A stretch of 64,000 nt of DNA from Candidatus Zipacnadia bacterium (lineage in GTDB: Bacteria; Armatimonadota; Zipacnadia; Zipacnadales; Zipacnadaceae): assembly GCA_029820565.1 (NCBI GenBank), contig JALGUR010000003.1:3304-67303 (forward strand). The letters run 5' to 3'. The notes under the pieces were generated by a model. That model ran no database searches, was not told the origin of the DNA, and saw only the letters and a list, made by a program, of their open reading frames with translations. Position 1 is the first letter of the stretch. Each line of letters opens with the position of its first letter. Both the position numbers and the translations under genes were made by a program. Below are positions 10,539-60,323 of this stretch, piece by piece.

Positions 10539-13306
<2,768 letters not shown>

Positions 13307-16911: not shown

Positions 16912-17187
16912 TCACCAATCTAAATCGGGTTCAATTTGCTCTGAATTCAGTAGTTCTGTGTAGCAGTCCCGTTCCTTCTTAGGCACCGGCCGCCGTGGCA
17001 ACTGCAGTATCCGGTAGCGCCGCACGCTCATACCCAGCCGCACAGTTATTTCCTGGCCTACTGCCACTTCAGTGCTGGGTTTAGCCGGCTGCCCCTCCAC
17101 CTCCACCAAACCTTCGTCACAGGCCCGCTTAGCCTGGGTACGCCGGGGAATGCAGCCCGAGTTGCGCAGAAAAACGTCAACCCGCAT
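16912..17187 (-). CDS. S4-domain RNA-binding protein (YabO/Hsp15-like)
   Basis: 91-aa ORF beginning MRVDVFLRNSGCIPRRTQAKRACDEGLVEV. It overlaps the mazG 3' end by 11 nt, mirroring the Bacillus yabN-yabO arrangement. Confidence 0.7.
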   Translation of the reverse strand: MRVDVFLRNSGCIPRRTQAKRACDEGLVEVEGQPAKPSTEVAVGQEITVRLGMSVRRYRILQLPRRPVPKKERDCYTELLNSEQIEPDLDW

Positions 17188-17962
17188 CGCCTTCAGAACT
17201 CTTCACCTGCTCCCACAACTCATCCATCTCGGCCAACGTCATCTCCTCCACACTACGCCCCTGCGCGGTAGCACGTTGTTCCACCGCCCGGAACCGCCCC
17301 TGAAACCGGTCGTTAGCCGCCCGTAGCGCCCTTTCTGCACTAACTTGCAAAAGTCGTGCCACATTCACTACTGCGATGAGCACATCGCCTATCTCCTCGC
17401 TGATGCGCTCCTGATTCTCGCTATCAACCGCTTCTTGTAACTCTTCTAATTCTTCGGTTATCTTCGCCCACGCCCCGCTGCTATCCTCCCAGTCAAAGCC
17501 CACCCGCGCGGCCTTCTCTTGCAGCCGATTAGCCCGCTGCAGCGCCGGCAGCCTCTTGGGCACACCATCCAGCACTGACTGCCGCCCCGCTCCCTCGCCC
17601 TTGCTTCGCTTCAACTGCTCCCACCGGCGCAGCACTTCCTCGGCACCAGAAACTGATGCCTCCCCAAATACATGAGGGTGACGATACACCAGTTTATCAT
17701 TTATCGCCCCCAGCACATCGCTAATATCAAATTCCCCATCCTCGCCGGCTATTTGAGCGTGCATCACTATATGCAGCAGCACATCACCCAACTCGGCGCA
17801 TAGTTGCTTCCAATCCCCCGTCTCAATCGCCTCCAGGGCCTCGTACACCTCCTCAACGAAGTACTGCTGCAAACTCTCGTGAGTCTGCTGGCGATCCCAG
17901 GGGCAGCCCTGCTCGCTTCGCAAGCGTCTTACTATTTCTACCAACCGGTCAAACTGCTGCAT
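17177..17962 (-). CDS. mazG: Nucleoside triphosphate pyrophosphohydrolase MazG
   Basis: 261-aa ORF with LRSEQGCPWDRQQTHESL, the EEVYEALEAI EExxE motif, and a second MazG repeat containing EELEELQEAV. Confidence 0.9.
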   Translation of the reverse strand: MQQFDRLVEIVRRLRSEQGCPWDRQQTHESLQQYFVEEVYEALEAIETGDWKQLCAELGDVLLHIVMHAQIAGEDGEFDISDVLGAINDKLVYRHPHVFGEASVSGAEEVLRRWEQLKRSKGEGAGRQSVLDGVPKRLPALQRANRLQEKAARVGFDWEDSSGAWAKITEELEELQEAVDSENQERISEEIGDVLIAVVNVARLLQVSAERALRAANDRFQGRFRAVEQRATAQGRSVEEMTLAEMDELWEQVKSSEGDAG

Positions 17963-18047
17963 TTAGCCCACCCTGTAGCGCTACGCAGCGACCGCCTCCT
18001 GCACGGTCGCTGACACTGCTACCTTATCCTACGCAGTCGCCTCACAC

Positions 18048-19058
18048 TTATTCGTCGGTATTCTCACTCTCCGTTGGACTCTCTTCCTCCGGGCCGAACG
18101 CTGGTATATCCTCCGGCGCCTGGTACAGTTCATTCAATCCCTGGAACTCCGGCGCCACAATACTGACTACCGCCTTCTGCCTCAGTCGGTTCACCAACTG
18201 ATCCACCGGCTCAGCCTGCGCCCGCTTGTAGTCTTCGGTCACCTGCTCCTTAACCTTCTCAAAAGTGCCCTTCTCCGCGGCCTTGCGCTCCTCAACTTTG
18301 ATGACATACCACTGCTCGTCGGCGTTTATCGGTTCGGATACTTCCCCTACCTTCACATCCTGTGCCGCCCACCGCAACTCCTCCGGGTACAGTTGTCCAA
18401 TGGGCGTCTCAGGCCGCTTGCCCCCATATTGGCGGGTGCCCGGACTAAGCGAATACTGCGTGGCCAGAGCCGCAAAATCCGCCTCTGCTCCCTTAGCCTC
18501 TTTGGCTACCTTCTCTGCCTCTTCCTTGCTGGACAGCACTATCTCCCGTATCACCACCCGTAGTGGCTTGTCATACCTGTCACTGTACTGCTCGTAAAAC
18601 TCCCTAATTCCCTTCTCGCTAACCGCCACATCTTTGCTTGCCAACATCTCCAACTTCATATTAAACTCCAGTTCCTCCTCCAGTTCCTCCACCGTAGTCC
18701 CCCGCGAATCCAGAAACTCAGCAAAGGCCTCCGGCGTCGGGAACCTGCCTTGCAACTCCGCTAACCGTTTGCTTGTCTCCCCCTCGGCCACCTGCAAACC
18801 CGACGCAGCAAATTCCTGCTCAACTAGCTCCCGGTCAACCATAGTGCGTAGGATCTGCTCACCCGCCGCCTTTTTCAGACGCGCCATGAACTCAGCCTCA
18901 CTAATCCGCTCGCCATTAACCACCCCCACCGGCTTCTGCCCACACCCACCCACCACCACCGCTAATATCATTCCTATTACGACCATATACGAAATTTTCT
19001 TATTCAACTTGCTGTAACTCCCTTCTACAATTACACCATCCCCGCCCCCCCCGCTCAT
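18048..19058 (-). CDS. Peptidyl-prolyl isomerase, PrsA/SurA-like (parvulin-type) lipoprotein
   Basis: 336-aa ORF with the lipobox AVVVGGC, a SurA-N-like chaperone region, and a PpiC-type segment (RVVIREIVLSSKEEAE ... QYSLSPGTRQYGG). The start is uncertain (19058 or 18986). Confidence 0.7.
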   Translation of the reverse strand: MSGGGGDGVIVEGSYSKLNKKISYMVVIGMILAVVVGGCGQKPVGVVNGERISEAEFMARLKKAAGEQILRTMVDRELVEQEFAASGLQVAEGETSKRLAELQGRFPTPEAFAEFLDSRGTTVEELEEELEFNMKLEMLASKDVAVSEKGIREFYEQYSDRYDKPLRVVIREIVLSSKEEAEKVAKEAKGAEADFAALATQYSLSPGTRQYGGKRPETPIGQLYPEELRWAAQDVKVGEVSEPINADEQWYVIKVEERKAAEKGTFEKVKEQVTEDYKRAQAEPVDQLVNRLRQKAVVSIVAPEFQGLNELYQAPEDIPAFGPEEESPTESENTDE

Positions 19059-19252
19059 ATATACCCTGATTATACCACAACCCCGCGCGAAAACAAAACA
19101 CCCGGCCCACTTTCTTTCTCTCGCCCTTTCCTTCTCCCACTCATGTACCTCTCCAGCGACGTATCGTAGGCTATCTAATGATAACGTCTCCCCACCTCCA
19201 CCACCAGCCCCGCATCAGACAATATGCTGAGTATACTCAGTATATTGTATAC

Positions 19253-20128
19253 CTATATAATATCCTCCGGAGTGATAGTGCTAACTAACCGCTCCAATTC
19301 TTCTTCGCTATGGTACTCTATCAGTATAGTCCCCCCATCATCACCCTTCACCTTAATCCTCACTCGAGTCGCCAACGTCTCCTGCAGCCGCTCCACCATA
19401 TCCGCCAAATAAGCATCAGTCTTCACTACAGGCGGCTCACCCTTTTCGCCCCGTCTTCTCCCCCCTTTTTCCCGCACCTCACGCACCAACGCCTCTGTCT
19501 CTCGCACAGTCATCTCTTTCTCCTCTACCTCTCGCCAGATATCATCCACCAGATCCAACGCCTCACCCAACCCAAGCAACGCCCGCCCATGCCCCTCGCT
19601 CAGTCGCCCTTCACCTAACGCAATCTGCACCTCTACCGGCAGTTGCAGCAAGCGCAAGGCATTCGCTACCGCGCTGCGGCTCTTCCCGACTCGCCCGGCC
19701 ACTTCCTCTTGTGTAAGACCGAATTCTTCAACCAACTGCCTATACCCGCGCGCCGCTTCAACGCACGACAGGTCCTCCCGCTGTATGTTCTCAACTAACG
19801 CCAACTCTAACGCCTCCTCATCCCCGATCTCCTGCACAATGCACGGCACCGTCTCCAACCCCACCTCTTGCGCCGCTCGCCAGCGTCGCTCCCCAATCAC
19901 TACCTGGTAGTCCTCTCCAAGCCGCCGCACTACCAACGGCTGCAGAATCCCCTGGGTGCGCACTGACTCACTCAGTTCTCGTAGCCCCTCCTGCGAAATC
20001 GGCCCCCGAGGCTGAAAGGGATTCGGCCGCAGCCGCTCTACGGACACCTCGATAACCGCCCGGCTTTGCGCTAATCCGTCCCCTGATATAAGTTGCCGTA
20101 AGCCTTTGCCCAAACTCGCTTTACGCAT
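19253..20128 (-). CDS. parB: Chromosome partitioning protein ParB/Spo0J
   Basis: MRKASLGKGLRQLI, PNPFQPR, GILQPLVVR, VIGERRWRAA and an HTH region. The ORF track extends to 20236, but the ATG at 20128 gives the canonical N-terminus and an 8-nt overlap with parA. Confidence 0.9.
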   Translation of the reverse strand: MRKASLGKGLRQLISGDGLAQSRAVIEVSVERLRPNPFQPRGPISQEGLRELSESVRTQGILQPLVVRRLGEDYQVVIGERRWRAAQEVGLETVPCIVQEIGDEEALELALVENIQREDLSCVEAARGYRQLVEEFGLTQEEVAGRVGKSRSAVANALRLLQLPVEVQIALGEGRLSEGHGRALLGLGEALDLVDDIWREVEEKEMTVRETEALVREVREKGGRRRGEKGEPPVVKTDAYLADMVERLQETLATRVRIKVKGDDGGTILIEYHSEEELERLVSTITPEDII

Positions 20129-20903
20129 CTGCAAACACCTCCTGATATAGCCGCCAGTATGCCCGACTGCCCGCGCAATTTCCATCATACATAACTGCCG
20201 GCACGCCATACGATGGCGCCTCCGCCAGTCGCACATTCCGCGGAATTACTGTTCGGAACACCCGTCCACTGAAATTCTCGCGCACCTCCGCCTCCACCTC
20301 ACCCGACAGATTCGTCCGCCTGTCGTACATAGTCAAAACCACCCCGGCGATCTCCAGGCCCGGATTGATCTGCGCCTGCACCAGATGCACGACCTCCAGA
20401 AGTTGACTTAGCCCCTCCAAGGCGTAGTACTCACACTGGATTGGGATTAACACCCGTTGCGCCGCCGCCAGACTGTTTATAGTGAGCAGTCCCAGTGACG
20501 GCGCAGTATCAATGAGAATCAAATCGTAACGTTCCTGGGCTCCCCGCAAAGCCTGGCGCAGTTTCGTCTCCCGGCCTATGGCGCTGGCCAGCGCCATATC
20601 CAGACCCGCCACGTTAATCGTCGCTGGCACCAGCCATAGATTGTCCACCGGCGTCGGAACCACTACATCCCCAAATTCGGCCGCCCCCGGGCTTCTGTCC
20701 GCCTGAGTCGTGAGCAAGTCGTACAGGCACTGGTCCAATATGCTCCGGTCTACACCCAATCCACTGGTAGCATTCCCTTGCGCGTCGCCGTCAACAACCA
20801 AAACTTTTTTCCCTCGCAACGCAGCACAAGCGGCCATATTCAGCGCAGTGGTGGTCTTTCCCACCCCCCCCTTCTGATTCACTATCGCATACGTCTCCGG
20901 CAT
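20121..20903 (-). CDS. parA: Chromosome partitioning ATPase ParA/Soj
   Basis: 260-aa ORF with the deviant Walker A NQKGGVGKTTT, followed by LVVDGDAQGNAT and ILIDTAPS. Confidence 0.92.
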   Translation of the reverse strand: MPETYAIVNQKGGVGKTTTALNMAACAALRGKKVLVVDGDAQGNATSGLGVDRSILDQCLYDLLTTQADRSPGAAEFGDVVVPTPVDNLWLVPATINVAGLDMALASAIGRETKLRQALRGAQERYDLILIDTAPSLGLLTINSLAAAQRVLIPIQCEYYALEGLSQLLEVVHLVQAQINPGLEIAGVVLTMYDRRTNLSGEVEAEVRENFSGRVFRTVIPRNVRLAEAPSYGVPAVMYDGNCAGSRAYWRLYQEVFADA

Positions 20904-20956
20904 TGCTCACCTCCTAACAACTTCAACTGGTGCCAATCACCGATACTTTTCACCCG

Positions 20957-21619
20957 CTATCCGACTCTTCTATATACTGATACTTGCAGGCCCGGCACCG
21001 CGGTGCCCCTTGTCCCTACCACCTCCACCTCAGACCCGGGCTTCCCATAACCCGTATCCCCGCATTGATGCCACGCCGCTATATAACCACCTTTCTGCAC
21101 GACGACGAGGCCCAGGCTCAATGCCGTCTCCGCGCTAGCCAGAGCCCGCATCACCACCATCTCGTAGCCATTTGCACGCTGTTCTCGTAGTTCGTGGATC
21201 TGCGCGCATATCACCTTGACATTACTTAGATCCAGCCGCCCAGATAGCAGTTGCACAAAATCCGCCGCTCGCTGGCGCCTATCAACCAAGTCTATTGGCA
21301 AGTCGGGCTGCAAAATGGCCAGGGCCAACCCTAACGCACCTGCCCCAGTGCCCAGATCAGCGCAGGTGGAGACAGTGCTCATATCAATTATGTCATAAAC
21401 AGTGAGTACTGGGGCTATCGCCTGTTGCCAGACCAGGGCAGGCGTATTGTACTTAGACAATCCAACTCGTGGTGCCTTAGTTGCTAACCACTGCACCAAC
21501 AGTTCCAGTGCCTGTTGCTGGCTACTGTGTAGTGACAGACCGCGGTGCATTGCTGCCGTCACAAAGTCAGTTAGAGTTGCCATGCTTGGCTTACGGTCCA
21601 AATGTTTCACGTGAAACAT
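20957..21619 (-). CDS. rsmG: 16S rRNA (guanine527-N7)-methyltransferase RsmG/GidB
   Basis: 220-aa ORF with the characteristic MFHVKHL start and the SAM motif DLGTGAGALGLALA. It lies upstream of parA-parB. Confidence 0.88.
   Translation of the reverse strand: MFHVKHLDRKPSMATLTDFVTAAMHRGLSLHSSQQQALELLVQWLATKAPRVGLSKYNTPALVWQQAIAPVLTVYDIIDMSTVSTCADLGTGAGALGLALAILQPDLPIDLVDRRQRAADFVQLLSGRLDLSNVKVICAQIHELREQRANGYEMVVMRALASAETALSLGLVVVQKGGYIAAWHQCGDTGYGKPGSEVEVVGTRGTAVPGLQVSVYRRVG
21603..21618. promoter_or_regulatory. parS centromere site
   Basis: TGTTTCACGTGAAACA is a perfect 16-bp palindrome identical to the canonical ParB-binding parS consensus. It forms codons 1-6 of rsmG (M-F-H-V-K-H). Confidence 0.85.
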
Positions 21620-22312
21620 TGCCCCTATCCCCCCACTCCACTATCCTTTCGCCATCTGTCCCTCGCCCACCTCCTACCCACACCTCACCACCCCCCCCTC
21701 CTACTATAACCCAAATCCCATAATAAAGCAACCCCTCTCCCTCATAATATCCTCGTCCAGTCTCGCACCACCACCACTAACCCAGGCAATTCATCACTCA
21801 ATCTTGCGAAAAGCCCACTTAAACCCGCTTCTCCCTACCTTTCCGCCTTCGCGCACACCTACACCCCACAAGTCCGCCAAGAACCTCCAAAGTAGAACAA
21901 TCCAGCAAACAACGTCTCGTGATTCCTGGTAGGCCGCTGATAATTGTCGCTAATCGCTTCTGACGACCAGTTTTGAGTCTACCCCCTATCCTCCTTGTTT
22001 GCCTTATCACTAATTCTGCTTAAACCTTTTTACCCCTGGCTCTCAATCTTCACCCCCCATCACCGCCCGCCACCCAAGGCCACCACCCAATTTCCACACG
22101 CGACCGCTCATCTTCCCTCCTGACAAATGTGCCCTATCCTATTTCAATTTTCCCTGTGCACAACCCTACCACCTCCGTCAGTCTACACTCTGCCCATACA
22201 CCTCCCACAGCGTACCCGTCTCGCCATCCTGGTTACGATAGAGTTGAAGGAGGATTCTTTTCCCCCACGACTAATAGAGACACCACTGCTGTCCCTAAAG
22301 GATATCGTCCCT

Positions 22313-23689
22313 ATGTTCCCTGGCTATCCGATCAACAATATGGCCCAGGCCCGCGATTACCTGCGCTCATTTGTAGACTTCGAGCGCCGTGGGCTCCGCC
22401 GGCACTTTGCTAACGTCGTCACCCTGGACACGATCCGATCTCTGCTCGATTCATTAGGCAATCCCCAAGCGCATCTTTGTTGCGTTCACATTGCCGGAAC
22501 CAAGGGCAAGGGCTCAGTCGCGGCAGCCTTGGAGGCTGCCTTGCGGCGCGCTCGCTACCGCACCGGGCTGTATACCTCACCCCATCTGGTCACTCCGACG
22601 GAGCGTATCCGAGTCGCAGGTGCGAAGATATCAGATGAGCACTTTGTTGAGGTGGTTCGCGCGGTGCAGCCGGCCGTGGAGCAGGTGCGGAAGCGTTCAG
22701 AACTTCCCGCAGTCACTTTCTTCGAGATATACACGGCCATGGCGCTACTATCATTTCGGCGGGCAGGCGTCGACGTGGCCGTGATAGAAGCGGGCCTCGG
22801 CGGGCGTCTGGATGCCACCAACCTTGTCATCCCTGATGTCAGTATTATTACAGTCATTAGTTATGACCATACAGAGATTTTGGGCACGACTGTCGCCCAA
22901 ATTGCTGCCGAGAAGGCCGGAATCATCAAGCCGCACACTCCCGTAGTGCTTGCCCCTCAGGTGCCTGAAGCCCGGCGCGTGCTATTGGCCGAGGCGAAGC
23001 AGAGACAGGCGCCGGTCATTGTGCCTCCATCGGTGCACGAATACGGCCAAGTTACCCCGCTAACGGTCCCAGCGTCGGACGAAGCACTGGCTCGGCCGAC
23101 TCAGAAGTTTGCTTTATCAGTGGAGAAAGGCGACCTGTGGGTAACGACGCCGCTGATAGGCGAGCACCAGGCGGGTAATGCGGCGCTGGCGTACGCTGCC
23201 CTGGGGGTATTGCGCGAGACTGGGTTTGACATAGAGGATCGGGACTTTGTGGTCGCCATGCGCGAATTGAACTGGCCGGGGCGAATCCAGTTGGTGGCGG
23301 CGCGGCCCTGGATCGTGGTAGACTGTGCGCATAACCCGGCCTCCGCGGCGGCCTTGGCTGCCACCTTGCCTCGCCACTTCTGCTATGATAGGCTGATTAT
23401 GGTGGTGGGCATCTCGGCCGATAAAGACGTTGGTGGCATTATCCAGGCGTTGGCGGAAGTGGCCGACGAGTTCATAGTTACGCAGGCGAATATTCCGCGC
23501 GGCATGCCTGTCACTGAACTATTACAAGTGGTGCGCAGTCAATGGAAGGGACCGACAGACGCCAGACACACTGTGGCCGAAGCGCTGAGCACAGCCCGCC
23601 AAGTAGCAGGGCCCGCAGATGCTATTTGTGTGACTGGTTCATTTTTCGTCGCCGGCGAGGCTATGGTTGAACTGGGAATAGAGCCCTAA
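22313..23689 (+). CDS. folC: Bifunctional folylpolyglutamate synthase / dihydrofolate synthase
   Basis: Mur-ligase P-loop HIAGTKGKGS, LYTSPHL, EAGLGGRLDATN and DCAHNP. The ORF track starts at 22127, but the conserved region begins near NMAQARDYL, so the start is taken as the ATG at 22313 (or 22340). Confidence 0.85.
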   Translation: MFPGYPINNMAQARDYLRSFVDFERRGLRRHFANVVTLDTIRSLLDSLGNPQAHLCCVHIAGTKGKGSVAAALEAALRRARYRTGLYTSPHLVTPTERIRVAGAKISDEHFVEVVRAVQPAVEQVRKRSELPAVTFFEIYTAMALLSFRRAGVDVAVIEAGLGGRLDATNLVIPDVSIITVISYDHTEILGTTVAQIAAEKAGIIKPHTPVVLAPQVPEARRVLLAEAKQRQAPVIVPPSVHEYGQVTPLTVPASDEALARPTQKFALSVEKGDLWVTTPLIGEHQAGNAALAYAALGVLRETGFDIEDRDFVVAMRELNWPGRIQLVAARPWIVVDCAHNPASAAALAATLPRHFCYDRLIMVVGISADKDVGGIIQALAEVADEFIVTQANIPRGMPVTELLQVVRSQWKGPTDARHTVAEALSTARQVAGPADAICVTGSFFVAGEAMVELGIEP

Positions 23690-26177: not shown

Positions 26178-27167
26178 ATGACCGCACCGCCTACTTCGCC
26201 CCCCAGTGTTCCCCAACTGTTGCTGGTCAGCGCCTCCGGGCAGTTGGCTCCAGCACTGGTTGAGGCGCTGGAGGATAACTTCGCGGTCAGCCGGATGGGC
26301 AGTGGCCAGCAAGCATTAACTTGGCTCGGCGGGAGCGCGGCGGAGGTTATCATCGCCACCGACCGGGTTTCCGATATGTCAGGCACGGAGTTTTGCCATA
26401 GGCTTGAACAACTACCCGCGGCGCGACCGGCCGCCTGTATAGTGCTCACTGACGATAGCAGCGGCGACCTGATGGCACGTATGTTGGAGGCCGGCGCCGA
26501 CGATTGTCTGCCCCTTGCCATCCATCCCCAGCAGTTAGTAGCCCGGATTAAGGCGCTGGTGCGCTGCTGCCAGCGGCAGCGGGAATTGAATCCGCTCACC
26601 GGCTTGCCGGGCAACGCTTATTTGCAGCGGGAGATTACCCGCCGGCTGCCGGATCGAGGGCATCTGGCTGTCATTGGCTTTGACTTGGACAGCTTCAAGG
26701 CTTATAATGATGTCTATGGCTATTACCGTGGCGATAAGGTCATCTGCCTGGTGGCCCAAATATTGCAGGATAGTGTCAGAAGTCACGGAAGAGCTGACGA
26801 CTGCCTGGCACACATTGGCGGCGATGACTTCTTTGTGCTCACTGCCCCGGAAAGAATGCGCGATCTCGCCCAGGCGGCGATGCGCGAGTTTCAGCAGGCC
26901 ATACCTGAGTTCTATGACGAGACTGACCGGCGGCGCGGCGGCATTACCGGATTCACGCGCCAGGGCCAGGAAGTCTTCTTTCCCATTATGCGGCTCATAG
27001 CCACCGCCGCTACCAATAAGGCCGCCGATATCCAGCACATCGGCCAGATCGCCGCTATTTTGAGTCAGTTAAAGGAATATGCCAAGCAGACAGAGAATAG
27101 GGGCTTAGTTGTGGACCGGCGCCAAACTCATGGTACCCGTCAGGCCGGGCAGCAACAGCCCAACTGA
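26178..27167 (+). CDS. Degenerate receiver domain fused to a GGDEF-family (GGDDF variant) nucleotide cyclase domain
   Basis: 329-aa ORF. The REC-like N-terminus lacks the acidic pair (LLVSASG) and the conserved Lys-Pro. The C-terminal domain has LTGLPGN, FDLDSFKAYNDVYGYYRGD and HIGGDDFFVL. Confidence 0.75.
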   Translation: MTAPPTSPPSVPQLLLVSASGQLAPALVEALEDNFAVSRMGSGQQALTWLGGSAAEVIIATDRVSDMSGTEFCHRLEQLPAARPAACIVLTDDSSGDLMARMLEAGADDCLPLAIHPQQLVARIKALVRCCQRQRELNPLTGLPGNAYLQREITRRLPDRGHLAVIGFDLDSFKAYNDVYGYYRGDKVICLVAQILQDSVRSHGRADDCLAHIGGDDFFVLTAPERMRDLAQAAMREFQQAIPEFYDETDRRRGGITGFTRQGQEVFFPIMRLIATAATNKAADIQHIGQIAAILSQLKEYAKQTENRGLVVDRRQTHGTRQAGQQQPN

Positions 27168-27211
27168 TAACTGCAAGCCGGCAACCAGGAAGTTCGCGGG
27201 AGGCAATTACT

Positions 27212-27595
27212 ATGGCTAAGCACATCTTGCTGGTAGACGACAGCCGCGATTTCATCGTAGCCACCAGGGCCTTTCTGGAAGAAGAAGGCTATGAAGTTAC
27301 CGAGGCCCATGACGGAGTCCAAGGCTTGGAGCGGGTCAAAGAACGCCAACCCGACTTGATCATTTTGGATGTAATGATGCCGCGACTGAACGGCTGGGAA
27401 ACCCTGAGAGCCTTGCAGAACGAAGAAGATACCGCCCGCATCCCCGTGTTAATGCTCACCGCCCTGAAAGAGCCTGAAGATGTCAAAGAAGGCTTTGACC
27501 TGGGCTGCACCTGGTTCTATACCAAACCCATCACCGACTACGAAGACCTCCTCTTGGTCGTGCGCCGTATCCTGGACACGACCGCAGGGGGGTGA
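27212..27595 (+). CDS. Single-domain CheY-like response regulator
   Basis: 127-aa ORF with ILLVDDS, the phospho-acceptor region LIILDVMMP, VLMLTA and KP. It is a paralog (about 65% aa identity by eye) of the ORF at 62223-62681. Confidence 0.85.
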   Translation: MAKHILLVDDSRDFIVATRAFLEEEGYEVTEAHDGVQGLERVKERQPDLIILDVMMPRLNGWETLRALQNEEDTARIPVLMLTALKEPEDVKEGFDLGCTWFYTKPITDYEDLLLVVRRILDTTAGG

Positions 27596-27928
27596 AAGGG
27601 CATGGCCCGTTACCGAGACGCGTGGCCCTGCTCGGCGGGCGGAGTCGTTAATCATGGCTCAGGTCCGCGCGGCGAGCTCAAGGTGCTACACACTCAGGCC
27701 GAAGATACGTGTAGTGGTCGTTAGATCAGTATCTAGCCAGAAGGATTTCGGCTAAGGGCGAACCGAACTGTCGGATGGTCAGTGCAGTCTAATCATGTGA
27801 GAAAACCTTTGTGCCATGACGCGCTTTGGGGCCGGAAAAGGGAGAATGATGTACAGAGAGCACTCAAAGCGCTCAACTGGGATCGCCACACAAAGGTCAT
27901 ATTGTTATACTAATTATACTATACCCCC

Positions 27929-27957
27929 TTGACTTTTCTGATAGTTATTGATATAAT
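27929..27957 (+). promoter_or_regulatory. Consensus sigma70-type promoter
   Basis: TTGACT (27929-27934), exactly 17 nt of spacer, then TATAAT (27952-27957). It lies in a stretch of about 39% GC (27841-27960) and about 200 nt upstream of the next good RBS/ATG at 28162. Confidence 0.55.
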
Positions 27958-28161
27958 GCGGCCCAGACGGCGAGAAAAACCTGAACGCCAGTGGTCGTAG
28001 TCGTTTAGACTCGCAGTTCCCGTAGCAGTTGAGGTCGAAGGATATGCCACCCACGACAGGTAGGCGTCACTCTCCATCTCGTCCTGTACTTCAGAAGCGC
28101 GTTTCCGGGATCAGCTACGCCCGTGACTAGACATCTATCTCGAAAAGGAGGCCAACCTGAC

Positions 28162-28371
28162 ATGCCATCACCACGCGTGAAGCGTTCCGAGGACTCAGAA
28201 GGAATCGGCGCGACCATCAGGATCGACCGCAGTGAGTTGCTCGAATCTCCGCGGGAGCGCGAGGCCTGTACCAAAGCGTATAAACGCTTGATGGCCGCCA
28301 AGACCAGAAACCACAAGGCGGTTCACGACCTATTTCACAGTCAGGGCACACGTGAACTAGAGGTGGTCTAG
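28162..28371 (+). CDS. Small hypothetical protein (69 aa)
   Basis: ATG at 28162 lies 7 nt after AAGGAGG. The product is MPSPRVKRSEDSEGIGATIRIDRSELLESPREREACTKAYKRLMAAK.... The ORF-track start at 28123 lacks an RBS. No family recognised; a ribbon-helix-helix-like start is only a guess. Confidence 0.4.
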   Translation: MPSPRVKRSEDSEGIGATIRIDRSELLESPREREACTKAYKRLMAAKTRNHKAVHDLFHSQGTRELEVV

Positions 28372-28528
28372 GGGTTGTGTGACCAAAGGGAGCGGTGCCG
28401 ATGTAACGTGGCACGTCCAATGCTAGTAGGCCATTGACGGGAACGAGGGAGGAGTCTGACACATGAACGCTCCTTCCTCTTTCTACGAGTGCCAGGAGCA
28501 ATCAACTGCGACAGAGTAGGTGTAGACC

Positions 28529-30418
28529 ATGGGAGCAGGTACATTTACCTTCGATGAACAGCATATCTTCGAAGGCAAAGCGGTGTACACAAAGCTTGAG
28601 GAATTGGATGGGCAAAGAAGGCTGGACTTCCATTGGAAGTGTGAGAACTGCGGCCAGGTGTTCTTCTCTAGTGAGTTCGCGCCGGAGGCGGACTGCCCTG
28701 AATGCAACAGTGCCGACTCCCTAGTGCAGTCGGACGTGTACGTCCGGCCGGGAGTTCTGATGAGCATTGGGCATTATCTTCGGGGGTGGGACAATGTGAC
28801 TATGCTCGTTGAGGATGACGTGGTTGACGAGGAGTATTTCCGGGAGTTTCTTTATTTCTACTCCGCCACCTATTGGGAGTACCCGGTGAGGACACACCGT
28901 TTGCACTTCTTTTCGAAGCCGTGGAGCGAGATAGAAAAAATGTTTCGCCCGGAGGACTACCCCCCTAACAAGATAGACGACCATCTCTACCTCGGGTATG
29001 TCATGCTTCGTCCTACGGTGCCGCAGACGGTGGGCGAAACGCTACTGGCTCATCCACAAGAGACCGATAAGGAAACGTGTCACGTCACGTGTAGTACCGG
29101 GTTTGGACAGACAGTCGCTGGCCATAGGCTCCGGATCGACTGTGCTCCCATGATCGGCCAGGATCAGACCGGTGTATGCGCGCACAGTACACTGTGGGGA
29201 GCTCTAAAGTACTTACACAAGTACAGGTATTACCCCAAAATGTCGATGCCAGAACTTGCTATAAGAGCCGGAGAACTGGATCCAACCACCAAATTCAGAA
29301 GGCCAACAGGGGGTCTGCTGCCCGAGGTGATATATGCATTGCTCCAAGACTTGGGGTTTAACGTGCACTACGAGGCCGGCCGAGGAGACGAAGAGGGGAG
29401 GTTCCCAATTCTTCGGACCATTTACTCGGGCGTCGAGAGTGGGCTGCCGGTCCTGCTGCATCTAGATTGCGGGCCAGGGGGTGTTAGTCCACCGCACGCT
29501 GCATGGATAGTTGGGCATACCCTTGGGCATTGGGCAGACGAAGGATCAGAAAGAGAAACATACAAGGGACACTTCGTGACATTGCGAAACCCAGTTCACC
29601 GGTGGTTAGTGAATGACGACAACGTGGGCCCGTACATGCCCGCGACAATTGAGCGTGTGACAGCAAAGGATCCCAAGGCGGACCCACAAGTGTTTCTTAA
29701 CTTGCGCTATGACGGATATCGACCCAAGGCGAATACGGATCCGTTGTGTTCCCCCAGACGCATCCGTCAAATTGTGGGCGCTTTTGTTCCCCTCCCTGAG
29801 GAAGTCTTCATTGGTCCATCGGAAGTGGAGGCGATGACCAAGGGCGTCTTCACAGATGATTACCTGCTCGGTCTCATGGATTATATCCCTGATGACGTAC
29901 AGCAGAAGTCGTCGCTTGTTAAGCGGTTACAGAATTTCGCTCACAAGATAGAAAACGATAACACAGAACTGCGGTACCGCACCTATCTGGTCATGTCCGA
30001 TAGGTATCGCGAGTATGTGGCGCGCAGCGGGATGCACACTGCTTTGAAGAAGCTGTACACGGCCTCTTTTGCCTTCCCTGAGTACATTTGGGTCTCGGAG
30101 ATCATCGACGCAAAGTACTCAACTGTCAGTGAGAGTGGCGAAGCTTCGGTCATAGGTGAAGTGGTGCTTGACTCAACTGACTCTCTGGCCTTCACCGCAG
30201 GTGGCGGAATTCGTTGGTTGGCACTGCACATCCCAGGCCTTTTGTTGTATGCCCACGGGATCGCGATACCGGTGGACCTGAGCCCCCACGAAAAGCGTAA
30301 GCGTGCATTCCATGCGTTGTTGTTGCCCGAAGATGAAGAACCCTATGGATGCTTCACGAGCAAGAGAGAGCCGCCGGATCCGCCACGCTCCTATCGAAAG
30401 CTAGGTCCAATGTGGTGA
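28529..30418 (+). CDS. Zinc-ribbon plus papain-fold cysteine peptidase domain protein with an unassigned roughly 250-aa C-terminal domain
   Basis: 629-aa ORF. It has a CxxC-x14-CxxC ribbon (CENCG...CPECN, nt 28640-28705). It also has Q211-x5-C217 (QDQTGVCAHSTLWG), H323 in PHAAWIVGH, and N362/D363 in RWLVNDDNVG. These match the papain Q-C...HAxxxVG...WxVxN order. Spot GC counts are about 47%, against about 63% in the flanks. Confidence 0.6.
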   Translation: MGAGTFTFDEQHIFEGKAVYTKLEELDGQRRLDFHWKCENCGQVFFSSEFAPEADCPECNSADSLVQSDVYVRPGVLMSIGHYLRGWDNVTMLVEDDVVDEEYFREFLYFYSATYWEYPVRTHRLHFFSKPWSEIEKMFRPEDYPPNKIDDHLYLGYVMLRPTVPQTVGETLLAHPQETDKETCHVTCSTGFGQTVAGHRLRIDCAPMIGQDQTGVCAHSTLWGALKYLHKYRYYPKMSMPELAIRAGELDPTTKFRRPTGGLLPEVIYALLQDLGFNVHYEAGRGDEEGRFPILRTIYSGVESGLPVLLHLDCGPGGVSPPHAAWIVGHTLGHWADEGSERETYKGHFVTLRNPVHRWLVNDDNVGPYMPATIERVTAKDPKADPQVFLNLRYDGYRPKANTDPLCSPRRIRQIVGAFVPLPEEVFIGPSEVEAMTKGVFTDDYLLGLMDYIPDDVQQKSSLVKRLQNFAHKIENDNTELRYRTYLVMSDRYREYVARSGMHTALKKLYTASFAFPEYIWVSEIIDAKYSTVSESGEASVIGEVVLDSTDSLAFTAGGGIRWLALHIPGLLLYAHGIAIPVDLSPHEKRKRAFHALLLPEDEEPYGCFTSKREPPDPPRSYRKLGPMW

Positions 30419-30524: not shown

Positions 30525-30827
30525 TTATCCGTACTTATACGCCACTCCGAAGCCGCCACGGGGGTAGGACCAGTCAATGTTGTCGTAGGGGCACACTATC
30601 TGGCAAGCGCCGCACTCCAGGCAGTTCTCGTAGGCTACTTCCAGTATCTCTTCGTCTTCCACCCAGCGGTAGACCTCGGCCGGACAGCGGTCAATGCACG
30701 GCTTCTCCTCACACCGCCGGCAGGTTTCCTCGTCTTTGATAATTAGGTGGCAGTTCTCTTCATCAATCTCGTACTTGACCAGGTACAGTTTGTCGGCCAG
30801 GCCCTGGTTGGCATCTTCTGCTATCAT
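30525..30827 (-). CDS. fixX: Ferredoxin-like protein FixX
   Basis: 100-aa ORF with CxxCxxxxCxxxCP (CRRCEEKPCIDRCP) and CLECGACQIVCP. It overlaps fixC by 4 nt. Confidence 0.85.
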   Translation of the reverse strand: MIAEDANQGLADKLYLVKYEIDEENCHLIIKDEETCRRCEEKPCIDRCPAEVYRWVEDEEILEVAYENCLECGACQIVCPYDNIDWSYPRGGFGVAYKYG

Positions 30828-56889: not shown

Positions 56890-59811
56890 CTACTCCACGG
56901 TGGCGTCAAGTTGCTCCAGTATCTTCTTCTGTTGCTGCTGCTTGGCCTGGTAGCCGGCCAGGTCGCTCTGGCGCAGCAAGCGGTCGGCTTCGACTTCCAG
57001 TTGCAGAACCTGTTTAATCATGTCGCGGATTTGTTGCAGATCTTCAGGCGCGCCTTCCGTGGGCGGTCGCTCGGCCACCCCGGGCCGCGCTTCTATTTCT
57101 ACTTCAGGAGCCGCCGTGGCCGCCACGCCGAACAGTTCAGCCAGGGCCTGGTCCAGAGTAGGTTCCATTACTATGCGATCGCCGACGACTACGATAACCC
57201 GATGGAGAGTGGGGTAGGGGCTTTCGGTGGATTCCAAGTAAATCGGCTCGACATATAGCAGCGATTGCTCAATGGGAATGACCAGGGTATTACCGCGGAT
57301 CACCCGCGAGCCGCCCGTGTCCCACAGGCTGAGTTGCGGGGAGATGGTGGCGTCCTGATCTATCAATGATTCCACCATCATTGGGCCCAAGAACAGCTGG
57401 CCGGCAGCGAAATCATACACCAGCAATTCGCCGTAATGGGGATCGTCGCAGCGCGCCGCCATCCATGCCACCATGTTCTTCTCTTCGCGGCCTCTGAGGA
57501 CCATGGGCAGCATCTGGATAAACTCGGCGTGCTCGGCGCCCGGCAACTTGAGTATGATATAATACGCCTCCATCGGTCGCCGGTAGCCGGCATACAGTTC
57601 GGGCGGAATGGCCCAGGCATCTTCGTTGTGGAAGAAAGTGGGCACATCCTTCATATGGTAGCGGCCGTAGATTTCGGCCTGGATACGGAACAGCAGTTGG
57701 GGATAGCGCAAGTGGCGGCGCACTTGATTAGGCATTTGGGAAAAAGATGTAAATAGCGTGGGAAATATGCTCTGGTAGCAGTGCAGTATTGGGTCGTCCG
57801 GGTCAACGGCGTAGAAGATTGGTTTTCCCTCGTAGGCATCTACGACTACTTTGACTGAATTGCGCATATAGTTGAGATTGCCCACTTCGGGTTTACGCGT
57901 AGAGTACGGATACATACGCGAGGCAGTATAAGAGTCACAGATCCATTTCAACTGCCCGTCTATGATCACCAGATAGGGGTCCGGATCGTACGTCAGGAAG
58001 GGGGCAATGGCATAGATACGCTCGGGCACATAACGATTAATTTGTATTTTGCTGTCGGGTGTGATGTACTCGGTGAGCAAGATTTGTACATCCATAAACC
58101 GGGCGGCAAAGGCCAGGCGGTTGAACCAACCGCTTATGGAGACTCCGCCGCTGCCGCTGTAGTGGGTAGTCACATTGGCCCCAACCCCGGCCTGGCCAGT
58201 CTTGGGGTAGTGGAGTTCGGGATTGCGGGAGTTGACAATTACGAACTTGGTTTGCTGCACGGTGGCGCTGCCCGCCGCCGCCGAGGGCGAGGGTTGGACC
58301 GAAGGCGAGGCCGGTGGTGGCATGCCGCCCGGACCCTCGGGTCCGGTGGCCTGAGGCGGAGGGGGCCGCTGCTCGGGGGGAGAGATTAGTTCGATTAAGC
58401 GCGGGCGCGTACTGGTCATATAATACAGGCCAGGCCGCTGTACTTCCAATTCCTCAAAAGTGGAAACTGTGGGCAGGTCCTTTACCCAGAGTTCGGGCAA
58501 GCCACCGTTGGCCGATTTGTTCACTGGCGACATAGCCAGGCCATAGCCGTGGGTGTAAGACAAGTAGGTATTAACCCAGGTGCGCGAGGGCAATTCGCCG
58601 TAATCCAGTTGGCGGGCCGATAGCATTATCTGCCGGTACTCACCCCCCACATGGTAACGATCCACATCCACATCGGCGAACTTGTAATAAGCCCGCAGGC
58701 CCTGTTTCATATCGTAAGTGGTCTCCAGAGGCCGATGGTCCCACAGGCGAATGCTGTTGAGTGTTTCGGCGTTAGCCCGAATCTCCTGTGCTGTCAGGGC
58801 TTTGGCCGCCGGGAAGGTGCGGGTCTTGACCTTCTCCAAGTCGTAGGCTTTATTAGTGGCGGTGATATTGTGCTTGGCGTAAGGCGTCTCTTTCTCCAAT
58901 TGAGTGGGTTTGACCACCAGGCGCTGAACCAGACCCGGGTAGGCCGACCCGCCCAGGAAGGAGATGGCCACCAGGATGCCCAAAGCCCAGCCGGCCAACC
59001 TAAAACCTCGGCGGCGAATGCTAACCAAGAGGATAACGCCCACTGCCGCGGCAACTACCATCATCAAGTATAGCACTGGCAGGCGGGCATGGATATCCAC
59101 ATAAGAGGCGCCGGAGAAGAACTCCCCGCGCTGGGAATACAATAAATCATACTGCGCCAGCCGGTAGCCATAGATCTTGAGGAACAAAGCCACGGCCAGC
59201 AGGCCCAGGCAATGCCGCCGGGCGCGAGGCAGGGCGTGGACCGTATTGCCCACAAGCCGAATCGCTTCCTGGTATAGATGGACAAGGGTGCTGACTACGA
59301 AGGCGATGACTACCGCATAGAAGCACGAGCGCCACACATACTGCAAGAAACCCAACTTAAACACATAAAAGCCGGCATCTTTGCCCAAGACGGGTTCAGT
59401 GTAACCGAAGTCCACGGGATGGGTAAACTGCAGATAACCCAGCCACCGGCTGCTGCCGTACAGACCAGCCAGCAGGCCGGCGCCCAGGGCAAAGATCAGC
59501 AACGCCCGATCGGCATACTGCTCAATCTGCTCGCGTTCCTCCTCGGGCAGTAATCGGCGACCGATGAAGGTTACATCGGTCGGTAAGGGACGGCGGGCGA
59601 TGCGGATGTTAAGCCACAGCCAGACAAAGAACAGACCACCTACGATGACACCCAGTAGCACTCGCGTGCCCAATATGGTCTTGAACACAGCCGCCTGGCC
59701 CACCGAAGCCATCCACAGATAATCGGTGTACAGGGTTAGCAGCTTTATTAGGACAGTGCCCGCCAGGATAAGCACAAAGAAATACGTCAACCATTTGCTG
59801 GATTTAGTCAC
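56890..59811 (-). CDS. UPF0182-family large membrane protein
   Basis: 973-aa ORF with N-terminal multi-TM segments and a large extracytoplasmic domain. YTDYLWMASVGQAAVFKT and the length fit UPF0182. Confidence 0.8.
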   Translation of the reverse strand: MTKSSKWLTYFFVLILAGTVLIKLLTLYTDYLWMASVGQAAVFKTILGTRVLLGVIVGGLFFVWLWLNIRIARRPLPTDVTFIGRRLLPEEEREQIEQYADRALLIFALGAGLLAGLYGSSRWLGYLQFTHPVDFGYTEPVLGKDAGFYVFKLGFLQYVWRSCFYAVVIAFVVSTLVHLYQEAIRLVGNTVHALPRARRHCLGLLAVALFLKIYGYRLAQYDLLYSQRGEFFSGASYVDIHARLPVLYLMMVVAAAVGVILLVSIRRRGFRLAGWALGILVAISFLGGSAYPGLVQRLVVKPTQLEKETPYAKHNITATNKAYDLEKVKTRTFPAAKALTAQEIRANAETLNSIRLWDHRPLETTYDMKQGLRAYYKFADVDVDRYHVGGEYRQIMLSARQLDYGELPSRTWVNTYLSYTHGYGLAMSPVNKSANGGLPELWVKDLPTVSTFEELEVQRPGLYYMTSTRPRLIELISPPEQRPPPPQATGPEGPGGMPPPASPSVQPSPSAAAGSATVQQTKFVIVNSRNPELHYPKTGQAGVGANVTTHYSGSGGVSISGWFNRLAFAARFMDVQILLTEYITPDSKIQINRYVPERIYAIAPFLTYDPDPYLVIIDGQLKWICDSYTASRMYPYSTRKPEVGNLNYMRNSVKVVVDAYEGKPIFYAVDPDDPILHCYQSIFPTLFTSFSQMPNQVRRHLRYPQLLFRIQAEIYGRYHMKDVPTFFHNEDAWAIPPELYAGYRRPMEAYYIILKLPGAEHAEFIQMLPMVLRGREEKNMVAWMAARCDDPHYGELLVYDFAAGQLFLGPMMVESLIDQDATISPQLSLWDTGGSRVIRGNTLVIPIEQSLLYVEPIYLESTESPYPTLHRVIVVVGDRIVMEPTLDQALAELFGVAATAAPEVEIEARPGVAERPPTEGAPEDLQQIRDMIKQVLQLEVEADRLLRQSDLAGYQAKQQQQKKILEQLDATVE

Positions 59812-60323
59812 GACTCGTTCTCCGTTTCTGTCTCAGAATCTTCGGTTCGAAATGTATCAGGGCTTATGTCAGCTTCGGCCAATAGTTCTCTGAATTTCTC
59901 AATCTCCTCGGCCTCGTCGCCACCTTCCTCCGGACGCACTGCGGCCTGAGCCAGAACTTCTTCTGACACTTCAATGTCGGCCCCGGTCTTCAGGGCCAAA
60001 GCAATTGCGTCGCTGGGCCGCGAGTCGACGTGTACCGGCTCCCCGTCTTTGTTCAGAGTCACCAGTCCATAGAAGGTCTTGTCTTCCAACTTGGTGACAG
60101 AAACCTTCTCCACGTGGCACTCCAGAGCGGCGATAATTGAGGAAAGCAAGTCATGGGTCAGGGGCCGCTCAAACTGTTTTTCATCCAACTCAGCAGCTAT
60201 GGCATAGGCCTCATACTGACCGATCCATATCGGCAGCACCCGCTCCATCGGCTCATCAGCCAATAGTACGAATGTGTGACCCATTAAATCAATGCCTACG
60301 CGATATACAAACATCGGAACCAT
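59808..60323 (-). CDS. Bifunctional nuclease (BFN/DUF151) family protein
   Basis: 171-aa ORF with VLPIWIGQYEAYAIAAEL and RPLTHDLL. It overlaps the UPF0182 gene by 4 nt. Confidence 0.8.
   Translation of the reverse strand: MVPMFVYRVGIDLMGHTFVLLADEPMERVLPIWIGQYEAYAIAAELDEKQFERPLTHDLLSSIIAALECHVEKVSVTKLEDKTFYGLVTLNKDGEPVHVDSRPSDAIALALKTGADIEVSEEVLAQAAVRPEEGGDEAEEIEKFRELLAEADISPDTFRTEDSETETENES

Follow-up and report, generated by a model that had tools for sequence, protein, structure and literature searches.

The gene of staphopain, a papain-like cysteine protease, is co-transcribed with that of a small dedicated protein, staphostatin, which neutralizes the staphopain inside the cell. Among other papain-fold enzymes, C39 domains cut leader peptides, deubiquitinase-type enzymes mature ubiquitin-like or Pup-like tags, phytochelatin synthase is a Cys-His-Asp transpeptidase, and AvrRpt2 is a type III-secreted effector that is activated in its host. 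Here we describe a two-gene locus from Candidatus Zipacnadia bacterium, a member of the Armatimonadota, located on a 64,000-nucleotide (nt) stretch of contig JALGUR010000003.1 (positions 3,304 to 67,303; hereafter, the window), which encodes a protein of 69 amino acids (aa) and a putative papain-like peptidase of 629 aa. We propose that the region 27929-30418 of the window is a single expression unit with these two products. Both genes are real and co-inherited, and the promoter in front of them and the hairpin between them recur in relatives.

The middle domain of the large protein is, as judged from residue conservation and a predicted structure, a clan CA (papain-like) cysteine peptidase core that lies outside the described families. 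A preliminary description of this DNA had noted a papain-type order of catalytic residues (Q211, C217, and H323), and this order is conserved. C217 and H323, together with G156 and G329, are invariant among 76-150 diverse relatives (C217 and H323 across all 150), and Q211, present in 73 of 76 distant relatives, has the spacing expected of an oxyanion-hole glutamine (Q211-x5-C217). The proposal of N362 or D363 as the third residue is upheld in part: position 362 is not conserved (His in 46 and Asn in 20 of the 76 relatives), whereas the acidic residues D364 and D363 are found in 76 and 70 of them, respectively. In the full-length AlphaFold2 (AF2) model, which was built on a 13-sequence alignment (pLDDT 77.5, pTM 0.82), helix 217-233 has C217 as its N-terminal residue, strand 323-332 opens with H323, and D363/D364 lie at the end of strand 359-363; this placement on a helix and the following strands corresponds to the papain arrangement.

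A Foldseek search of the Protein Data Bank (PDB) with the model retrieved prostaphopain B (1x9y, E 1.6e-4), staphopains A and C (probability 1.0, TMt 0.55-0.57; 1cv8, 8oig, and 1y4h all at probability 1.0), the C39 domain of ComA (TMt 0.68), PCAT1, IdeS/Mac-1, the ZUFSP deubiquitinase, and cyanobacterial phytochelatin synthase (probability 0.72-0.94), with TMt of 0.45-0.68 over these matches. Among the predicted viral structures of BFVD, the best match is an AvrRpt2-type peptidase (E 9.8e-5, probability 1.0). When the 76 relatives were scanned one by one, sub-threshold matches to Peptidase_C39_2 were obtained for 16 of them and to Peptidase_C70 for three; the best Peptidase_C39_2 match has E 8.7e-4, under the 24-bit cut-off, and the match in relative P0017 spans exactly the Gln, Cys, and His of the family. 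The family thus has the fold-level features of clan CA, namely the Cys-His-Asp order on a helix and strands, the oxyanion Gln, and similarity to solved members. Neither a signal peptide nor a transmembrane segment was found in the large protein, so the enzyme is expected to act inside the cell. The large protein is a conserved, cytoplasmic cysteine peptidase that is probably active and would cleave proteins.

The core is flanked by two further domains without known relatives. The N domain carries conserved or near-invariant residues (E95, D100, R124, F127, F128, Y154, G156, and P162), as does the C domain (R484, P517, W521, E524, D548, and T550). The C-terminal region, previously described as matching nothing, keeps that status, since the separate AF2 model of the C domain (pLDDT 77, pTM 0.75) has no structural neighbor in the PDB (best Foldseek match E 0.15, probability 0.11), and a profile search with the N and C domains for other architectures returned only hypothetical proteins of the same architecture. 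The CxxC...CxxC zinc ribbon of the preliminary description is present in the window protein (C38/C41/C57/C60, with sub-threshold Pfam rubredoxin and zinc-ribbon matches to residues 36-62), but it is not a family feature: this insert in the N-terminal extension occurs only in P0001 and P0002 among 157 relatives. The tail beyond G570 is 60-75 aa long in the clade of the window against a median of 35; its terminal motif (pLDDT <50) is shared by most members of the 13-sequence alignment (A1), though not by the most distant one, P0012.

The three-domain peptidase family is large, spans many phyla, and is not described. A word-indexed search of 5.8 billion proteins yielded 13 relatives, and phmmer, run exhaustively on 1.84 billion cluster representatives, yielded about 2,300 at E <= 1e-3, the count being of clusters at 50% identity; 709 of these reach E <= 1e-10 and only 16 reach E <= 1e-30. 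The detected members are nearly all 480-570 aa long. Every source name seen for them is 'hypothetical protein', and literature searches, including those with accession numbers, returned no description of the family. An exact look-up of the window protein matched no record. Apart from the weak zinc-ribbon matches, neither protein of the window matched Pfam, NCBIfam, PADLOC, or the PDB sequences, and a profile of 150 relatives likewise found no PDB sequence; the only hit in PADLOC-DB v2 is a spurious DruE fragment (E 5e-4) of 52 residues over the zinc ribbon. The distribution is patchy and ranges from Armatimonadota to Planctomycetota and Proteobacteria; a single locus belongs to a metagenome-assembled genome (MAG) labelled as an Asgard archaeon. 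In an Omnitrophota MAG, the main copy is preceded at a distance of 2 kb by the gene of a second, divergent peptidase paralog (L015, 2125-3660), which matches the family profile at E 1.3e-24. The homolog on the Shewanella baltica plasmid pS19501 (L055, 4995-7154) is annotated with 719 aa, about 200 aa over the family norm; its gene is flanked by those for CoiA and a TrlF-type AAA ATPase, with a Tn3 transposase nearby.

To characterize the neighborhood of the family, we took about 50 loci and clustered all open reading frames (ORFs) within 3.5 kb of a family gene. One neighbor alone recurs, a small ORF on the same strand, which substantiates the suggested co-occurrence of the two genes. In the clade of the window (34-54% identity; the closest lineage-named relatives are Armatimonadota/Armatimonadia MAGs), the small ORF is found upstream in all 10 distinct loci having upstream sequence (the window, L001, L002/L012, L004, L007, L008, L009, L011, L013, and L056). 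A leave-one-out hidden Markov model (HMM) built from eight upstream ORFs of homologous loci finds the window ORF at E 8.9e-7, with the next best of 679 window ORFs at E 1.1. A search of 5.8e9 proteins with the partner profile found only partner ORFs, i.e., only proteins encoded beside the large gene. The partners of the window and of L056, the locus of the closest homolog, give no pairwise BLASTP alignment, and the HMM detects both. At L056 (415-736), the arginine-rich ORF that is publicly annotated upstream of the homolog (521-736) is misframed, and the true partner ORF occupies 415/442-675 in a different frame.

In 19 more distant loci, mainly from Planctomycetota, Verrucomicrobiota, Omnitrophota, Nitrospirae, and Thiosymbion symbionts, an ORF of 59-69 aa is positioned directly downstream of the enzyme gene, with a start either 3 nt ahead of the end of that gene, which gives a 4-nt overlap, or within 15 nt of it. 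These downstream partners form four BLAST clusters that align as one family, and they terminate in motifs such as ...ARRLSEEDSRKHFVY. In other lineages and on two conjugative plasmids (Mesorhizobium pMspAR07b and Shewanella pS19501), the small gene again precedes the enzyme gene; on the plasmids, it is annotated by RefSeq. No homology is detectable between the three partner groups (hhalign probability <1% for the upstream type against the downstream type), and homology between the partner families is therefore not claimed. The partners are charged proteins of 48-108 aa, mostly 55-70 aa (55-77 aa in the clade of the window), and are probably helical; on our reading of the sequences, the groups resemble each other in size and in charge, and each has a short stretch of hydrophobic or aromatic residues at the C-terminus or close to it. 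No natural fusion of partner and enzyme was found. The peptidase gene is split or truncated at four loci (L040, 5854-6782; L025, 5857-7329; L026, 5857-7320; L043, 5809-6549), in three of which (L025, L026, and L040) the small ORF is intact beside the broken gene; such cases could mean that the enzyme decays while the partner is retained, or could be artifacts of MAG assembly.

The form of the partners bears on the question of whether the small protein is instead a substrate or precursor, trimmed by the peptidase to release or activate a peptide or modifier. The clade partners consist of a helix, a short hydrophobic stretch often followed by T/S/A-G (FVTGQ, LLTGE, LSGQ, LLAGQ), and a variable tail that could be removed; the ZUFSP deubiquitinase and two C39 leader peptidases, ComA and PCAT1, are among the closest structural relatives of the enzyme, and the weak Peptidase_C39_2 matches point the same way. 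However, a conserved Gly-Gly or other cleavage motif is absent, and the window partner has HSQ at the corresponding position. In the 19 downstream loci the partner ends at the hydrophobic stretch (...RKHFVY stop), so that nothing could be released C-terminally. Moreover, the neighborhood has no conserved maturation gene, such as one for a transporter or a ligase, and homology among the partner families is not detectable. We consider a substrate role unlikely, with the adjacency of three alphaproteobacterial loci to ubiquitin-like conjugation systems (see below) counting in its favor.

The expression signals of the locus were compared across the same clade. The order given in the preliminary description, with a leader of about 200 nt, a strong ribosome-binding site (AAAGGAGG), and the 69-aa and 629-aa ORFs, is present on direct reading, and the frame of the small ORF is correct, with its ATG at 28162 rather than 28163. 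The promoter described as perfect has the reported position and spacer, but its consensus score in the promoter scan is 11 of 12, which makes it near-consensus. Promoters with at least 11 of 12 matches are found 60-300 nt upstream of the partner ORF in six of nine loci of the clade (the window, L002, L004, L007, L011, and L013, with L011 reaching a perfect 12/12), and the genomes bearing them have 58-63% GC. The leader is neither a structured nor a conserved RNA element, contrary to the earlier suggestion of a structured leader: with a minimum free energy of -49.8 kcal/mol, its 202 nt (27964-28165) fold less stably than shuffled sequences (-58.0 +/- 4.7; z +1.75), Rfam gave no match for the leader or the whole window, and the leaders of six related loci cannot be aligned.

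The element that does recur is intercistronic: eight of ten clade loci have, between the partner stop and the enzyme start, a GC-rich hairpin and then a T-rich run, at the same position in each (the window, L001, L002, L004, L008, L011, L013, and L056), while folding detected none at L007 and L009. Tested by folding against 30 shuffles per locus, the hairpins of L001, L004, and L008 are matched in stability by no shuffle and those of the window, L011, and L013 by three to four of 30; the L002 hairpin resembles a textbook terminator but lies in a long spacer and is matched by ten of 30. The hairpin is likely a partial stop after the small gene.

This layout of promoter, short ORF, hairpin with T-run, and main gene, recurring in eight of ten clade loci, is also what would be expected if the upstream ORF were a cis-acting leader peptide, functionless in itself, whose translation controls the hairpin and thereby the expression of the peptidase, as in classical attenuation. 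We regard such attenuation as very improbable, given that the ORF is 55-77 aa long and conserved at the protein level across loci with non-alignable DNA, that the distance from the stop codon to the hairpin, about 10-70 nt, varies too much for attenuation coupled to the ribosome, and that the small ORF is positioned 3' of the enzyme gene in other clades.

The genes flanking the pair differ from locus to locus, without a conserved metabolic neighbor or synteny across the roughly 50 loci. In three gammaproteobacterial loci, two of them labelled Thiosymbion, the pair lies between nuoM-like and nuoN-like genes (Proton_antipo_M), seemingly inside the NADH dehydrogenase operon. In two alphaproteobacterial chromosomes (Phenylobacterium and Sphingomonas), it is convergent with BilD/BilC genes, and on the Mesorhizobium plasmid it is convergent with genes for a ThiF E1 and a multiubiquitin protein, beside transposases and an AbiEi antitoxin; at these three loci, the pair either abuts the convergent system or shares a 4-nt overlap with it. 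This adjacency to ubiquitin-like conjugation systems could be a functional link or just a shared defense island. Among the 144 neighbors, BilC/BilD, MADS, DISARM, Hma, a type IV restriction endonuclease, and PDC-S05 are each found at a single locus or a few loci, and the association with defense is only suggestive.

The same contexts speak to another possibility, that of a housekeeping role, in which the large protein would be an amidase, a transpeptidase, or an acyltransferase of the cytoplasm with a peptide or thiol metabolite as its substrate, and the small protein its chaperone, its activator, or an unrelated conserved neighbor. The fold match to phytochelatin synthase would suit such an enzyme, as would the metabolic neighbors in the clade of the window (oxidoreductase, phosphoglucomutase, methyltransferase, and fixXC) and a composition similar to that of native genes. 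The lack of a conserved metabolic neighbor or synteny, the patchy distribution over many phyla with plasmid copies and insertion into a nuo operon, and a sole fixed association with a fast-evolving small partner of clade-dependent position all stand against it, and a housekeeping role strikes us as decidedly unlikely.

The preliminary description had also interpreted the region as a low-GC islet acquired horizontally. Its AT-rich patch is real (39.2% GC at 27841-27960) but comprises only 120 nt around the promoter, whereas the whole region 27600-30418 has 53.9% GC against 57.5% for the window. In comparison with 44 long ORFs of the window (GC 58.3 +/- 3.0%; GC at third codon positions, GC3, 66.5 +/- 5.5%), the 629-aa ORF has 53.8% GC and 61.3% GC3 (z -1.5 and -0.95, respectively), and the small ORF is typical with 57.1% and 67.1%. 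Other genes of the window have equally low or lower GC (11841-13091, 50.4%; 59808-60323, 52.7%). With the GC and GC3 of the large gene within about 1.5 standard deviations and a typical small ORF, the region is no compositional outlier, and this native-like composition makes no case for recent acquisition. No tRNA gene was found in the whole window, nor mobility genes or flanking repeats at the site, the repeats there being short chance matches only. Elsewhere in the window, the GC skew falls to between -0.45 and -0.53 at 18501-19500, the extreme of a negative run from about 17000 to 22500, and turns positive at about 22500, in the same place as a switch in gene orientation.

We therefore find it scarcely credible that a secreted effector protease is encoded here on a foreign islet of recent acquisition. 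A GC content slightly under the window mean and the presence of secreted virulence proteases (staphopain, IdeS, and AvrRpt2) among the closest structural relatives are consistent with that view, but the composition is within the range of the window genes, flanking repeats, tRNA, and mobility genes were not found, the protein has no signal peptide or transmembrane segment, and its closest lineage-named relatives are Armatimonadota.

We tentatively favor another interpretation, one that is quite possible though short of probable, in which binding of the small protein keeps the peptidase inactive, as with an antitoxin or a dedicated inhibitor. In the clade of the window, the strong promoter and a leaky terminator-like hairpin after the small gene would yield more small protein than peptidase; if the small protein were lost or displaced, the peptidase would be freed to cut cytoplasmic target proteins, which the N and C domains may select, unless they sense the trigger. 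Several observations lead us to this interpretation. The only conserved neighbor across the loci is the small same-strand ORF, and its family is found only beside the large gene. The gene order flips and the partner diverges beyond detectable homology while the enzyme is conserved; toxin-antitoxin and effector-immunity pairs typically show such a flipped order and a fast-diverging partner. The enzyme has a papain-like fold with an intact, strongly constrained catalytic centre and is intracellular, and near-consensus promoters and hairpins accompany most clade loci. Finally, the flanks are varied, including the nuo operon, conjugative plasmids, Bil, MADS, DISARM, and type IV restriction. A toxin/antitoxin-like or defense role, as raised in the preliminary description, is plausible, and proteolysis, toxicity, and a part in plasmid maintenance or phage defense are putative functions of the pair.

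Other observations weigh against a restrained protease. The strict terminator rule listed none of the intercistronic hairpins, including that of the window, so that they rest on folding and the shuffle test and are called terminator-like for this reason; the hairpin of the window is weak taken alone, as three of 30 shuffles fold equally well. Most neighbors are housekeeping genes, those in the window included, and defense genes occur within two genes at about one fifth of the loci, a raw fraction without a background control. Neither protein has a credible match in PADLOC, and the phage collection contained no family member. The 69-aa protein has no Pfam or NCBIfam match of the helix-turn-helix, ribbon-helix-helix, or AbrB type (nor a PADLOC match), and so no recognizable DNA-binding domain, unlike most type II antitoxins, and the enzyme, at 500-630 aa, is large for a classical toxin. 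Papain-like folds also serve transferases and small-molecule amidases, and phytochelatin synthase is among the structural matches.

The features of the expression unit, of its flanks, and of the related loci mentioned above are collected in Table 1. The flanking genes of the preliminary description, a response-regulator gene and a convergent fixX, were both confirmed. Directly 5' of the module and on the same strand, the window encodes two receiver proteins at 26178-27595, one of 329 aa with a GGDEF domain and a stand-alone one of 127 aa; in related loci, no link of these receiver genes to the module was found.

Table 1. Features of the two-gene locus and of selected related loci (window positions unless a locus is named)
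Feature	Position	Strand	Remarks
Sigma-70-type promoter	27929..27957	+	TTGACT 27929-27934, 17-nt spacer, TATAAT 27952-27957, TG before -10
5' leader, ~200 nt	27958..28161	+	neither conserved nor unusually structured; holds the ribosome-binding site
Ribosome-binding site AAAGGAGG	28145-28152	+	read directly, upstream of ATG 28162
Small partner gene, 69 aa	28162..28371	+	charged, no hydrophobic segment, no family match
Intercistronic hairpin	28445..28484	+	GAGGGAGGAGT, 13-nt loop, GCTCCTTCCTC (28445-28479), then TTTCT; terminator-/attenuator-like by folding
629-aa three-domain protein	28529..30418	+	N-terminal extension, N domain, papain-like core, C domain, tail
Zinc-ribbon insert C38-x2-C41 ... 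C57-x2-C60	28640..28708	+	lineage-specific
N domain, ~aa 75-205	28751..29143	+	residue conservation
Predicted papain-like (clan CA) core, ~aa 206-380	29144..29668	+	Foldseek and residue conservation
Codon of Q211 (CAG)	29159-29161	+	
Codon of C217 (TGC)	29177-29179	+	
Codon of H323 (CAC)	29495-29497	+	
Codons of N362/D363/D364	29612-29620	+	D363/D364 at 29615-29620
C domain, ~aa 405-600	29741..30328	+	separate AF2 model; no known fold relatives
C-terminal tail motif DPPRSYRKLGP	30377..30409	+	consensus D-x-PRSHRKLGP; clade-specific; predicted disordered
Receiver-domain response regulator, upstream flank	27212-27595		Pfam E 1.4e-26
FixX-like ferredoxin, convergent flank	30525-30827	-	
nuo-operon insertions	L010 141-7593; L018 1046-8816; L040 2255-8464		
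Ubiquitin-like-system neighbors	L016 2720-4548; L044 7521-9424; L054 6491-8663		

If a restrained protease is indeed encoded here, a papain-fold protease effector would be added to the known types of toxin-antitoxin and defense systems, about 2,300 unannotated protein clusters would receive names and a testable function, and two domains without structural relatives would be defined. It is possible, if rather doubtful, that the locus is the first recognized of a new and widespread group of two-gene conflict modules (toxin-antitoxin or anti-phage), in which a cytoplasmic papain-fold effector with two previously unseen domains is held off by a hypervariable micro-protein, probably via a C-terminal strand placed in the active-site cleft. 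Even if the conflict interpretation were wrong, the strict pairing with a micro-protein and the layout of promoter, small gene, hairpin, and enzyme provide a lead to a regulated intracellular protease, in a module that is small and self-contained.

Comparison with the known systems places the locus near several of them. The staphopains (MEROPS C47), which gave the best Foldseek matches, have the same papain-like Cys-His core, and the pairing of a protease gene with a small dedicated protein can be likened by analogy to that of staphopain and staphostatin. However, staphopains are secreted pro-enzymes with signal peptides, in contrast to the window protein, and staphostatins are beta-barrels of about 110 aa encoded downstream, whereas the partner described here is charged, probably helical, and encoded upstream or downstream depending on the clade (69 aa and upstream in the window). 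There is no sequence similarity between the two pairs, and the window family has the additional N and C domains, which sets it apart from the staphopain-staphostatin type. The C39 and C39-like peptidases (ComA and PCAT1; PF03412, PF13529) have the same Gln-x5-Cys ... His ... Asp order, with the ComA PEP domain as a close structural match; the weak Peptidase_C39_2 matches of relatives cover the Cys and His positions, and the small adjacent ORF could be likened to a C39 substrate. Nevertheless, the Pfam gathering score is not reached, the window protein itself has no match, an ABC exporter is neither fused nor adjacent or conserved nearby, the partner lacks a double-glycine leader, and the three-domain architecture is unique to the window family. 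The AvrRpt2-type peptidases (MEROPS C70) gave the best match among predicted viral structures and the three weak Peptidase_C70 matches noted above, with nothing above threshold, and secretion signals and secretion-system genes are absent here.

Type II toxin-antitoxin systems share with the locus an adjacent, co-directional, and co-inherited pair of a conserved enzyme and a small fast-evolving partner, as well as the clade-variable gene order, the strong promoter, the patchy distribution, the plasmid copies, and the unrelated insertion contexts. The differences are that the enzyme is 3-5 times larger than classical toxins and that the partner has no recognizable DNA-binding domain, a feature that is common, though not universal, in antitoxins. 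To our knowledge, no toxin has a papain fold, and none was found in our literature searches. Set beside these systems, the locus encodes a papain-fold enzyme with a dedicated small partner, in a three-domain family that has not yet been described.

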